Part shown: positions 3,278 to 13,116 of the stretch, piece after piece
Layout: each line of letters starts with the position of its first letter
How positions within the stretch are numbered: position 1 is the first letter of the stretch
NCBI GenBank assembly: GCA_963767005.1
Contig: CAVYCN010000002.1
Location: 320,001 to 384,000, forward strand
Direction of reading: 5' to 3'
DNA from: an uncultured Actinomycetes bacterium
GTDB lineage: Bacteria; Actinomycetota; Thermoleophilia; UBA2241
DNA length: 64,000 nt
Notes under the pieces: model-generated
What the model saw: the letters and a program-made list of their open reading frames with translations, nothing else
Databases searched by the model: none
What the model was told of the DNA's origin: nothing
Made by a program: the position numbers and the translations under genes

Positions 3278-4348
3278 GTGCGGGTCACCGTCGTCGGCTC
3301 CGGTAGCTGGGGCACCGGCTTCGCGCGGCTGCTGCACCGCGGCGGCCACGAGGTGCAAGTGCTCACCCTGACGGCGGCCGAGGCCGCCGAGCTGAACGAG
3401 AGCCACGTCAATCCCCTGTTCCTGCCGGGCGTGGAGATCAGCCCCGAGATCCGCTTTGCAGCGATGGCCGACGCCACGCTCGACGAGAGCGAGCTGGTCG
3501 TGTACGCCGTGCCGACCCAGGTGGTGCGCGAGGTGGCGTGCTGGGTCGCGCCGCGTCGCGCGTCGCGCTCGCTGCAGCTCTCGCTCGCCAAGGGTCTCGA
3601 GCTGCACACGCTCCTGCGGCCGACCGAGGTCATCGCCAGCGAGACGGGCTCGCCGGTCGCCGCGCTGTCGGGCCCGAACCATGCCGAGGAGGTCGCCCGC
3701 GACCTGCCTTCGGCCACGGTCATCGCGGCCGCCGACGAGCGCCTGGCGCGCCGCCTGCAGGGCATCGTCACCGGCGAGACGCTGCGCGTGTACACCAACG
3801 ACGACCTTGTCGGCGTCGAGTTCTGCGGCGCCGCCAAGAACCCCATAGCGATCGCCGTGGGCATCGCCGACGGCCTCGGCTTCGGCGACAACACCCGGGC
3901 GGCGCTCATGACGCGCAGCCTCGCCGAGGTCGCCCGCCTCGGCATGCGCCTGGGCGCCGACTTCGCCACCTTCGCCGGCCTGGCCGGCATCGGCGACCTC
4001 ATGGTCACCTGCACCTCGATGCACAGCCGCAACCGGCGTGCCGGCGAGCTGATCGGCCGCGGCGAGGAGCCGAGCAGGGTGCCCGAGCTCGTCGGCCAGG
4101 TGGTCGAGGGCATCCCGACCGCCTACGCCCTGCACGACCTGAGCGGGCGCATGGGGGTCGAGATGCCGGTGACCGAGGCCGTCTACGACGTGCTCGAGCG
4201 CGGCGTCTCGCCGCGGGAGTGCGTCGGCAGCCTGATGAGCCGCGACGTCACCTCCGAAGCCGGGCAGGACATCATGAGCCTGGTCGGCCAGATCCGTCAG
4301 TCGGCCACCAAGAAGGCACGGCGCACGGCGCGGCGGCTGCTGCCCTAA
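3278..4348 (+). CDS. gpsA: NAD(P)H-dependent glycerol-3-phosphate dehydrogenase
   Basis: GSGSWG, SGPNHAEE, GAAKN and GDLMVTC..SRN motifs. Confidence 0.96.
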   Translation: MRVTVVGSGSWGTGFARLLHRGGHEVQVLTLTAAEAAELNESHVNPLFLPGVEISPEIRFAAMADATLDESELVVYAVPTQVVREVACWVAPRRASRSLQLSLAKGLELHTLLRPTEVIASETGSPVAALSGPNHAEEVARDLPSATVIAAADERLARRLQGIVTGETLRVYTNDDLVGVEFCGAAKNPIAIAVGIADGLGFGDNTRAALMTRSLAEVARLGMRLGADFATFAGLAGIGDLMVTCTSMHSRNRRAGELIGRGEEPSRVPELVGQVVEGIPTAYALHDLSGRMGVEMPVTEAVYDVLERGVSPRECVGSLMSRDVTSEAGQDIMSLVGQIRQSATKKARRTARRLLP

Positions 4349-4388
4349 GGGAGCGGGTCGGGGTCCAGGGCGCTCCTCCGGGTATTCT

Positions 4389-4500
4389 GAGCGCGTTACG
4401 CAGACTGCATAAGCGCAACTCACCAGCTCGCCTCTTGCGCTTATGTACAAGGGCGCAGGATGCTGCCGATGTTATCGAGACGACAGAATCAGGGTTGGCA
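4389..4500 (+). mobile_element. attI-like region upstream of first gene cassette (putative)
   Basis: Ends in core site G|TTGGCA (4494-4500). Upstream GTTA motifs at 4395 and 4471 and an inverted repeat at 4408-4445. No attC fold precedes the core. Confidence 0.4.
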
Positions 4501-4523
4501 GTACAGACGATGGGAGGTGGACG

Positions 4524-4949
4524 GTGAGCCTGTCAGTACGTGTGGCGACTCCTGACCCCAGCCGCAGCCCGGTCTTGCGCGCTGCGCTCGCCGTACCCCT
4601 GCTCTACACCCTGTTCCACGTGTGGCCCAGGCACTGGTCCTGGGCCTTCCCGTCCGACCAGGCGACTGGCTTCTACGCCGTCAACGGCCTGCTCTTCTTC
4701 ATCCCCATCGCCGTCTGGTGCACCGCTCTCGCGCTGCTCGCGCTGGGCAGCCCCAACCGCATCGCTTGGGCCCTCGTGGCCGTCGGAGGCACGCTCGTCG
4801 CCGTCTACGGCTTTCGCTTCGTCCTGGCAGTCCAGCGCGACCTGAACCCCGTGCTTGCCTTCGGCCTCTACGCCGCGCTCCTGGGAGCGTGGCAGCTCGC
4901 CCGGCGCCGCAAGCGTGAGCGCGGTCCGGCGACCAAGTCGGGGGCGTAG
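4524..4949 (+). CDS. Hypothetical membrane protein of about 4 TM segments (integron cassette gene)
   Basis: SD GGGAGG (4512-4517) then GTG at 4524, in frame with the 4443 ORF. Hydrophobic segments. Stop lies 13 nt before attC. Confidence 0.7.
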   Translation: MSLSVRVATPDPSRSPVLRAALAVPLLYTLFHVWPRHWSWAFPSDQATGFYAVNGLLFFIPIAVWCTALALLALGSPNRIAWALVAVGGTLVAVYGFRFVLAVQRDLNPVLAFGLYAALLGAWQLARRRKRERGPATKSGA

Positions 4950-4962
4950 CCGTGGTCCGAGC

Positions 4963-5052
4963 TGCTAACCAGCGGATCAAGCTGACTCGCAGATGCGCGG
5001 GCGGTGCAACGGAATGCCGGCGCGCTCGCAGCTTATCCGCCGGCCGTTAGGT
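4963..5052 (+). mobile_element. Integron attC recombination site
   Basis: R'' TGCTAAC, 5-nt spacer, L'' GATCAAGC ... L' GCTTATC, spacer, R' GTTAGGT. The extra C in L'' and extra A after AAGCTG give the two extrahelical bases. Confidence 0.85.
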
Positions 5053-5119
5053 GCGGTTTCCGGAGGGCTGAGGGTGATCAACGCGCACGGAAAGCGGGCT
5101 GCTTGGGGAGCGCTGAGCT

Positions 5120-5204
5120 AGCCAACAGGCATTTCGCAGACTCGCCGAATGAGTGCGCCGAGAGCGACAGTCTCGCTCGCAGCTCAAATGCAGCGACGCT
5201 ATAC
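5120..5204 (+). mobile_element. Second, degenerate attC site
   Basis: AGCCAAC-AGGCATTT..GACTCGC ... GCTCGCAGCTCAAATGC..GCTATAC. Shares GACTCGC and GCTCGCAGCT with attC1; R' has GCT instead of GTT. Confidence 0.55.
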
Positions 5205-5313
5205 CCAGGGGGTCGAGGCGTGGGCAACACCTCACTGGTCAACCCGCTCGTCATCGTCTTGCTGCCGGCCTACGTCTCGATGCGCTTGGGCGGGCGGGCC
5301 CTGATGCGCTGCA

Positions 5314-5343
5314 TTGTGCCGGCGCGCGCGCCTCTGGTAGACT
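5314..5343 (+). promoter_or_regulatory. Housekeeping-sigma promoter for metK leader
   Basis: TTGTGC-18 nt-TAGACT with extended TG, just upstream of the riboswitch. Confidence 0.5.
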
Positions 5344-5360
5344 GCCAGCCAGGTCGCACT

Positions 5361-5497
5361 GACCCATCAAGAGAGAGGCCGCCACACGCGTCGTACGCGC
5401 GCGGCGGTCCTGGCTGAGGGACTGGCCCTACGAAGCCCGGCAACCGGTCGCACGGCACGGTGCCAACTCCAGCAGGCGCGAGCCTGACAGATGGGTC
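5361..5497 (+). promoter_or_regulatory. SAM-I (S-box) riboswitch with an extra inserted hairpin
   Basis: P1 GACCCATC/GATGGGTC; ATCAAGAG; GAGGGACTGGCCC; GAAGCCCGGCAACC; GGTGCCAACTCC; P4 CAGG/CCTG; upstream of metK. Confidence 0.93.
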
Positions 5498-5569
5498 GAC
5501 CGGGTACTTGCCGTCGAAAAGCAGCGACGTTCGCGCACGCCGTGTCGAAGGCGCGGGCCAGGAGGACAC

Positions 5570-6805
5570 GTGGACAAGCACGAGCACCTGTTCAGCTCGG
5601 AGTCGGTGACCGAGGGGCACCCCGACAAGATCGCCGACCAGATCTCCGACGCCATCCTCGACGCGGCGCTCACCGACGATCCCATGAGCCGCGTCGCCTG
5701 CGAGACGCTCACCACGACCGGCCTCGTCATGGTCTCCGGCGAGATCAGCACGCAGACCTACATCGACATCCCGCGCGTGGTGCGCGAAGTGGTGCGCGAC
5801 GTCGGCTACTCGCATTCTTCGTTCGGCTTCGACCACGAGACCTGCTCGGTGATCTCGACGATCCACGAGCAGTCGCCCGACATCGCCCAGGGCGTGGGGA
5901 AGGCCTACGAGGTCCGCACCGACGTCAACGACGACGACGTGCTCGACAGCCAGGGCGCCGGCGACCAGGGCATGATGTTCGGCTTCGCCTGCAACGAGAC
6001 CCCGGAGCTCATGCCACTGCCCATCATGCTGGCCCACAAGCTCACTCGCCGTCTGACCGACGTGCGCAAGGCCGAGGTGCTGCCGTATCTGCGGCCCGAC
6101 GGCAAGTCGCAGGTCACAGTGCGCTACGAGGGCCGTCGCCCGGTCGAGGTCGTGCGCGTCGTGCTCGCCACGCAGCACGCCCCCGAGGCCGACGTCGACA
6201 CGCTCATCAAGCCCGACCTGATCGAGCACGTGGTCGAGCCCATCCTGCCGCACGAGCTCTACCGGCCCGGCAGCCTGGCCGAGATCACGCTGGTCAATCC
6301 GACCGGCCGGTTCGTCGTCGGCGGGCCGATGGGTGACACCGGCCTGACCGGCCGCAAGCTGGTCGTCGACACCTACGGCGGCGCGGCGCGGCACGGCGGC
6401 GGAGCCTTCTCGGGCAAGGACCCGAGCAAGGTCGACCGTTCGGGCGCCTACGCCGCCCGGTACGTCGCCAAGAACATCGTGGCGGCCGGCCTGGCCGACG
6501 TCTGCGAGGTGCAGATCGCCTACGCGATCGGCGTCGCCCACCCGGTGTCGGTCATGGTGGACTGCCACGGCACCGAGAAGGTCGCGGTCGAGACGATCGA
6601 GCAGCTCGTGCGCGAGCAGTTCGATCTGCGCCCGGCGGCGATCATCCGCGACCTCGACCTGCGTCGGCCGATCTACCGCAAGACGTCGAACTACGGCCAT
6701 TTCGGCCGCTCCGACCACGACTTCACCTGGGAGCGCACCGACAAGGCGGCCGAGCTGCGCGCGGCCGCCGGCATCAAGGCCGCGGCCGAGCCGGTCGCCG
6801 ACTGA
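5570..6805 (+). CDS. metK: S-adenosylmethionine synthetase
   Basis: [17 protein letters not shown] and GGGAFSGKD motifs; SD AGGAGG. Confidence 0.98.
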
Positions 6806-12923: not shown

Positions 12924-12985
12924 GCCCAGGCCGTGCCACGGCCGCGAGCCGGCACGATTCCTGCTATACTTGCCGGCGACGAGTA

Positions 12986-13102
12986 CGTCTTCGGGGCGGG
13001 GTGAAAGTCCCCACCGGCGGTGAAAGCCCGCGAACCCCGCAGCAGCGGGGCCGACCAGGTGAGATCCCTGGGCCGACGGTACAGTCCGGATGAGAGAAGA
13101 CG
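12986..13102 (+). promoter_or_regulatory. FMN riboswitch (RFN element)
   Basis: CGTCTTCGGGGCGGGGTGAAAGTCCCCACCGGCGGT..AGCCCGCGA..GGTGAGATCC..CCGACGGTACAGTCCGGATGAGAGAAGACG. Preceded by TGc-TATACT (12962-12970); upstream of rib operon. Confidence 0.96.
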
Positions 13103-13116
13103 GCGCGGTGTCGCCG

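Follow-up and report, generated by a model that had tools for sequence, protein, structure and literature searches.

CALINs and related arrangements

Integron integrases (IntI) recombine the folded bottom strand of an attC site with a double-stranded attI site at G|TT. Arrangements already described include CALINs and cassette excision from them in trans, inverted integrases, and insertion at attG sites (PMC4889954, PMC9024848, PMC9668308, PMC3607928, PMC8352920, PMC13323075, bioRxiv 10.1101/2022.09.11.507474 and 10.1101/2025.06.18.660453; here and below these sources are cited for the parts of their text that were available). CALINs have so far been read as degraded integrons or as attG insertions; 95% of them have no intI pseudogene nearby (PMC4889954). 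Actinobacteria are viewed as being without complete integrons (PMC9024848), to the point of a "virtual absence" (PMC13323075).

We analysed an array between gpsA and metK in a 64-kb stretch of DNA (the window, on which unprefixed positions are given). Genomes are denoted G, contigs of the window's own genome (G000, 3.4 Mb) C and fetched loci L; genus g1 includes G000 and its sister genome G011 (GpsA 97% identical). The family genomes are drafts, and G000 is metagenome-assembled with a contamination of 4.87%.

The window array resembles a CALIN in being short, in having two attC sites (attC1 intact, attC2 degenerate) with no intI nearby and in the presence of an IntI elsewhere in the genome, and trans excision from CALINs has been proposed (PMC9668308). 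However, CALINs are described as degraded integrons or reservoirs, whereas the window array keeps a full attI and solo attI sites of this kind show signs of continued capture; IntegronFinder has no attI detection outside class 1. The inverted-integrase integrons of Treponema (PMC3607928) have intI pointing toward attI and co-oriented cassettes, as does the integrase locus of G000 on contig C12, and T. phagedenis has lost intI at a syntenic array, as have loci of the family studied here. In the available account there is one attI per integron and the intI-less array is called static, whereas here there are several attIs per genome and many loci, in Actinomycetota. In Xanthomonas, as here, distant CALINs at recurring places accompany one intI locus, the ilvD integron (bioRxiv 10.1101/2025.06.18.660453); the available text of that preprint reports no attI and a fixed intI locus, whereas here attI is present and the address of intI varies. 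Insertion at attG sites places cassettes outside the integron by IntI acting in trans, as we propose here, but attG sites are unlike attI in sequence and structure, and attI donors gave no genome insertion (bioRxiv 10.1101/2022.09.11.507474, available text). Here a whole attI is found, whereas a SALIN by definition has no upstream att site. Delta-attI-type cassettes of class 1 and 2 integrons, according to the available text of PMC12901181, show that more than one attI per replicon can be recombinogenic, and tandem attIs also occur here (L086, L116). Those cassettes lie in one mobile array beside intI, whereas the attIs described here are dispersed over the chromosome. A literature search, in which subscription journals were thinly covered, found nothing on several dispersed attI-bearing arrays per chromosome, nor on complete integrons in Thermoleophilia.

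Comparison of these sequences leads us to regard the window array as probably a stand-alone attI satellite, likely served in trans by a distant IntI; many of the family's satellites were probably left by intI deletion. The array itself is small and decaying; its interest lies in the architecture which it revealed family-wide. The original prediction was supported in part; the array is one case of a family-wide arrangement with multiple attIs, which it could not have foreseen.

The attI and cassettes of the window

The features of the interval are listed in Table 1. Only 47 nt separate the gpsA stop codon from the first attI motif, and no intI lies between them, so that the adjacency of intI and attI which defines a complete integron is absent. 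The insert had been described as less GC-rich than its flanks, which is right in direction (0.668 vs 0.722 for the window, placing it among the lowest 10% of 3570 genome windows), although the difference is only modest. The host is actinobacterial, as had been supposed, and probably belongs to Thermoleophilia: GpsA is 83% and 76% identical to Thermoleophilia proteins, and the best named matches of MetK are from Gaiellaceae/Thermoleophilia. A sigma-70 promoter scan predicted no promoter in 4300-5600, and no terminator was predicted there on the + strand. Farther along the window there is an FMN riboswitch at 12983-13105 (Rfam RF00050).

Table 1 Features of the gpsA–metK interval of G000 (window positions).
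Feature	Position	Strand	Basis
gpsA (glycerol-3-phosphate dehydrogenase), left flank	3278..4348	+	Pfam PF07479/PF01210
Solo attI, crossover G|TT between 4494 and 4495	4392..4497	+	Profile of intI-linked sites
Upstream attI repeat (motif 1), near-dyad	4396..4411	+	Conserved among the aligned attIs of the family
11-bp inverted repeat inside attI	4408..4445	+	G011 ortholog has two compensatory changes and one wobble
Predicted -10 hexamer of cassette promoter inside attI	4456..4461	+	First base differs from G011 and C4
Cassette 1	4495..5046	+	Core match 7/8
Cassette 1 gene, 141-aa hydrophobic protein, GTG start	4524..4949	+	8 matches among 841 candidates
attC1	4963..5052	+	Structural scan, pair counts; begins 13 nt past ORF stop
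attC1 box R''	4963-4969	+	
attC1 box L''	4975-4982	+	
attC1 box L'	5031-5037	+	
attC1 box R'	5046-5052	+	
Cassette 2 remnant, 15-codon ORF at 5074-5121	5047..5198	+	Core match only 5/8
attC2, degenerate	5120..5204	+	E 5.8e-19, with a profile that includes attC2 itself
Third cassette, likely truncated, lacking attC	5199..5308	+	Inferred from position; G011 homology resumes at 5309
SAM-I riboswitch of metK, right flank	5405..5494	+	Rfam RF00162, 49.4 bits
metK, right flank	5570..6805	+	Pfam PF00438/PF02772/PF02773

The window attI is homologous to the one behind the intI of G000 on C12. It was recognised using a profile built from the terminal 112 nt of the 16 sites that directly follow intI: it ranked second in the genome (E = 7.6e-9), and nothing matched when the genome was reversed. 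With 75 sites in the profile, excluding the window site and its ortholog, E was 2.9e-8. Positions 4396-4491 are 75% identical over 97 nt to C4:271675-271770 (E = 2.7e-10), a site heading another intI-less array, and the window attI is 80% identical to its G011 ortholog. In a tree of 77 attI sites, which has few columns, it groups with attIs of genus g1, two of them intI-linked (94/91 support). Our model R1, built from 15 intI-linked sites only, missed it (it was not listed by cmsearch at E ≤ 1 and had E = 0.45 with nhmmer), and this copy is therefore diverged.

The platform holds three repeats related to TTACGCAG, the first of which (motif 1) is likely a binding site of IntI or of a regulator, and its 11-bp inverted repeat could act on the gpsA transcript. 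A promoter-like motif occurs at two recurring positions in 40 of 77 family attIs, against 5.4 expected; the window is not among these 40. In the window the core and the predicted -10 each carry one change and the distal array is eroded, and this copy is likely ageing. The class 1 site attI1 (L289) has the 9-mer GTTACGCAG upstream of its core, which is also found in the family repeats; it lies 32 nt from the core in attI1 against 23 nt in the family attI.

A second solo attI was found in G000 directly after a glutaredoxin-thioredoxin reductase gene (C4:271670-272900; L010:5670-6900); its array comprises a HicAB-like cassette, one further cassette and attCs that have degenerated. At C6:190760-190852 (- strand) lies a degenerate attI that lacks both core and array, and its orthologs in G011 (L122) and G008 (L125) have cores and differing inserts. 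Apart from this coreless site, no arrays were found at the two places on C6 or at those on C3, the C2 end and C4:400966.

Cassettes may also enter a chromosome at an ordinary secondary (attG) site, here a chance GTT, which would leave a SALIN or a small CALIN without attI. It is true that attC circles enter many genomic attG sites (bioRxiv 10.1101/2022.09.11.507474, available text), that this array is short and that R1 missed its attI. However, about 105 bp upstream of the cassettes are homologous to intI-linked attIs and missing from empty intervals, and the same attI holds other cassettes in G011, so that insertion at an attG site is largely refuted and very improbable. The original prediction of a CALIN or secondary-site array stands in its first part, as the formal definition of a CALIN applies; the second was dropped because a complete attI precedes the cassette. 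It had noted the core at 4494 but overlooked both the full attI (4392-4497) and the 8-nt spacer between L' and R'.

It had nevertheless placed the core, the Shine-Dalgarno sequence, the ORF, the 13-nt gap and the 90-bp attC with its boxes and both extrahelical bases correctly. Cassette 1 begins with the core GTTGGCAG (4494-4501), followed by the Shine-Dalgarno sequence GGGAGG (4512-4517). The L boxes of attC1 are complementary at 7/7 positions, the R'' AAC and R' GTT cores are present, and C4978 and A4985 are the unpaired top-strand bases. As had been noted, the inverse core fits the cassette's own 5' core (7/8) better than the adjoining R' (6/8). A structural scan of G000 found five sites scoring 14-15, with attC1 the joint best (15) and the other four in the intI-linked array of C12. 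When the genome was reversed, a single site reached 14 and none scored 15. Across nine G000 attCs 85.9% of cells pair, as high as in 0 of 500 shuffles, and six pairs are altered on both sides, as high as in 35 of 500; this statistic leans in favour of the structure because the structure was drawn from the same sequences. The fold energy of attC1 is unexceptional (z = -1.04, 32 of 200 shuffles equally stable), and its minimum free energy fold pairs the L box and leaves the R box open.

attC1 is 70-81% identical to many family attCs. Its L'-R' spacer (5038-5045) has the length of 8 nt found in 53 of the 57 family attCs called, the other 4 having 9 nt. The control attCs (aadA1, Kovacikia and five Gemmatirosa sites) have 6 nt and several other Actinomycetota loci 9 nt, and we treated the long spacer as a lineage variant of attC, giving no reason for exclusion. 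A spacer of 8-9 nt may reduce the detection of attCs by standard models; an attC scan of G000 that was set to 5-6 nt gave nothing reportable.

The cassette 1 protein matched no family over cut-off in Pfam or NCBIfam, and its Atlas matches are hypothetical proteins; the single metagenome match to the cassette (L283) was judged spurious. Among the 88 other family genomes there was one strong match, in G022 of another genus, where cassette 1 is a true cassette 4.2 kb into an intI-linked array with near-identical ends and a different attC body. No cassettes are common to the arrays of G000 itself at ≥ 100 nt and E ≤ 1e-5. The second, degenerate attC of the original prediction is also real, being 81-88% identical to three C12 attCs, but it has a 2-nt deletion in L'' and GCT replacing GTT, so that the features of an attC are only partly present. 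The cassette 2 remnant is likely a deletion fusion of two cassettes.

The integrase locus and the gpsA–metK interval in relatives

Within the window no intI was found, as had been stated: of the 11 matches to TIGR02249 in G000 only one lies over the cut-off, at C12:167860-168801 (462 bits against a cut-off of 265), and the other ten are far below it. The suggestion that cassettes of IntI type were served from elsewhere thus gained a candidate enzyme, and the proposed search for a tyrosine recombinase with the IntI-specific insertion succeeded, as this open frame aligns over its full length, insertion included, to the solved integron integrase 2A3V. The gene sits behind a Prismane/CO-dehydrogenase gene. 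Downstream on the same strand, in the inverted arrangement, follow an attI and a six-attC array which reaches the contig end, with core matches of 8, 8, 8, 7, 6 and 6 of 8. A truncated attC at the start of contig C4 (C4:62-127) is possibly the tail of this array or of another. The attI pattern was found downstream of intI in 16 of 20 loci. The IntI tree is mostly without resolution and does not separate vertical from lateral inheritance. In L042-L048, L101, L103 and L270 the predicted intI promoter is immediately preceded by a conserved inverted repeat, a candidate regulator site, which differs in genus g1.

The comparison of the gpsA–metK interval across relatives, also suggested earlier, covered 83 gpsA loci, a few of them duplicates or incomplete. 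In 63 the interval is empty, with a gap of only 110-362 bp, including all seven other genus g1 loci fetched. An attI lies behind gpsA in two loci, those of G000 and G011. In G011 the same solo attI is followed by 2.3 kb with at least four cassettes unrelated to those of G000, the first a DUF3024 gene; then comes a HicAB-like pair that shares 75% identity with one of the cassettes in the C12 array of G000. The intI of G011 at the CO-dehydrogenase locus is a pseudogene with deletions and a stop. In G087, of another genus, a full integron lies 1.3 kb behind gpsA, beyond a DUF218 gene, and is probably a separate insertion. G007 (L282) carries a solo attI with three attCs in the priA-def interval, two genes downstream from the position of the window attI.

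An array or C12 intI foreign to this chromosome, joined to it by faulty assembly or binning, would be another explanation, given the contamination of this metagenome-assembled genome and the fact that no single contig from four runs covers the whole stretch. Against it, G011 independently shows attI at the same place, the intI locus has orthologs in G004 and G011, and the gpsA-attI junction and that between attI and cassette are bridged at 0-2 differences by contigs of separate runs, which makes an artefact hardly credible. No alternative first cassette was seen in the contigs of the four DNA runs, the depth of which is too low to be informative.

Under the stand-alone satellite reading, the ancestor of G000 and G011 would have received a whole integron or an attI copy behind gpsA; in the family intI would often have been deleted later, with the 110-bp platform retained. 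The IntI encoded at the CO-dehydrogenase locus would diffuse and bind each satellite attI, that of the window included, and the folded attC bottom strands of cassette circles would be recombined at its G|TT. The one whole and two eroded cassettes of the window would have been loaded in this way, in trans, by the single inverted-type IntI of G000 and would be read from a promoter inside attI or by read-through from gpsA.

Solo attI sites across the family

A full IntI over cut-off was found in 47 of the 89 genomes of this Thermoleophilia family, nearly always in one copy. IntI exceeds the cut-off in none of 24 genomes that represent the class's other families, and elsewhere in the phylum it does so in 19 of 300 genomes (≤ 7 candidates scored per genome); the family and phylum counts bear on the view that Actinobacteria lack complete integrons. 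Of the IntI loci fetched from other genomes of the phylum, 6 of 9 have same-strand downstream attCs. With model R1, attI-like sites were found in 71 of the 89 family genomes; there are 244 such matches at E ≤ 0.01, and a single genome holds as many as 17. The model gave two weak partial matches in the 24 control genomes; among attIs of other families it recognised those of 1 of 19 genomes. Single-sequence searches found one attI outside the family in the closed genome G318 and in G241. In genus g1, attI-like matches occur in 12 of 12 genomes and an intact IntI in only 2 of 12.

We studied 78 distinct attI sites, a non-random sample consisting mostly of the best-scoring among the 244 matches and of sites beside intI; matches without a core near the expected place were dropped (L099 and the C6 site of G000). 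Of these, 16 lie directly after intI, 14 have intI or a fragment of it within 1.2 kb and 48 are without intI (solo); for 45 of the latter the upstream sequence extends over at least about 1.5 kb, and three are limited by contig ends. A same-strand attC was found within 1.5 kb downstream in 26 of 46 sites of the solo group and 14 of 20 of the linked group, with none on the opposite strand and 1 of 37 in the upstream control; in the other 20 solo sites no attC was called within this distance. The first-cassette core matches at 8/8 positions in 19 of 26 solo sites vs 10 of 14 linked sites. In all nine orthologous attI pairs (eight solo-solo and one linked-solo) the first cassettes are unrelated, with identities of 49-59% against a random median of 53%, and in seven alignments identity ends ≤ 5 bases from the core. 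In L098/L104 a common block is about 1 kb more distant from attI in one of the two genomes, which is what the entry of new cassettes at attI would produce.

How solo sites arise was indicated by three loci which have intI and attI in one genome and a solo attI in another. The first lies behind a class II tRNA synthetase gene, which we take to be lysS (intI in G022; solo in G030, G109 and G111), the second behind the CO-dehydrogenase gene (intI in G000 and G004; solo in G021), and in the third (L101/L103) a clean internal deletion has fused the start of intI to its tail. Six further solo sites of the 48 retain the intI 3' tail, two of the six representing one duplication. It follows from these loci and tails that intI deletion makes at least some satellites and that the address of intI varies between genomes. 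A search for 5' or 3' remnants of intI beside the window attI found none; this site may have come from intI deletion or from attI copying.

There are also hints, from sequence similarity, that attIs may be copied or converted between loci: four G109 attIs at different loci are 91-94% identical, and the site in G011 L122 pairs with the attI type of the CO-dehydrogenase locus, while its orthologous sites bear another type. Three G111 attIs are 80-81% identical, and no intact intI was found in G111, which is 64% complete. Movement of a solo attI as an IntI-excised circle starting at G|TT was rejected, as only 6 solo sites have GT in front of the motif, out of 22 in which the motif was located; in the other 26 of 48 it could not be placed.

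The same loci would also suit a different history of the window array, in which an integron behind gpsA gathered cassettes in cis and then lost intI, so that the arrays now just erode and differences between relatives would reflect turnover before the loss or whole-array swaps by homologous recombination. The three observed losses at orthologous loci, the retained tails and the G087 integron speak for it, as do the eroded state of the window array and the absence of an intact IntI from most members of genus g1. However, none of the 83 gpsA loci has intI directly at gpsA-attI, and the cores of first cassettes are just as well preserved behind solo attIs as behind linked ones. We therefore consider such a frozen relic unlikely, and service in trans is favoured because an independent, traceless loss of intI in both members of the eight solo-solo pairs with a common upstream flank is less parsimonious. 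The main evidence against the favoured reading is that only two genus g1 genomes have an intact IntI and that the intI of G011 is a pseudogene, so that many satellites, perhaps including that of the window, may be idle now. The divergence and erosion of the window site, the solo sites with no attC called and the lack of cassettes common to the arrays of G000 also speak against it.

It should be noted that, using a lineage-specific attI model, many intI-less arrays keep a complete docking site with a first cassette that varies between relatives. A single enzyme and a site of 110 bp would therefore suffice to test service in trans directly. With several attIs, a genome would have not one but several first positions close to a promoter. 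It is possible, and we suggest it tentatively from the sequences, that the family runs a distributed integron, in which one integrase would serve up to a dozen or more attI-plus-promoter pads that are copied or converted without intI. If that is true, many "degraded" CALINs in other phyla would be active satellites with an attI invisible to current tools.

Some further arrangements were observed among the fetched loci. In L046, L055, L086, L092, L135 and L116 genes occupy the space from intI to attI or separate two tandem attIs; by eye several are toxin-antitoxin-like, and they resemble cassettes closed by an attI. Loci L118 and L120 of G007 share a 6.4-kb segment at 99.6% identity, in which a solo attI lies, and represent a recent duplication or an assembly duplicate. 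In G120, which belongs to another class, a solo attI-like site was seen by eye after a peptidase-like gene (L304:1380-2260), with a first-cassette core match of 8/8 and the intI of the genome on another contig.
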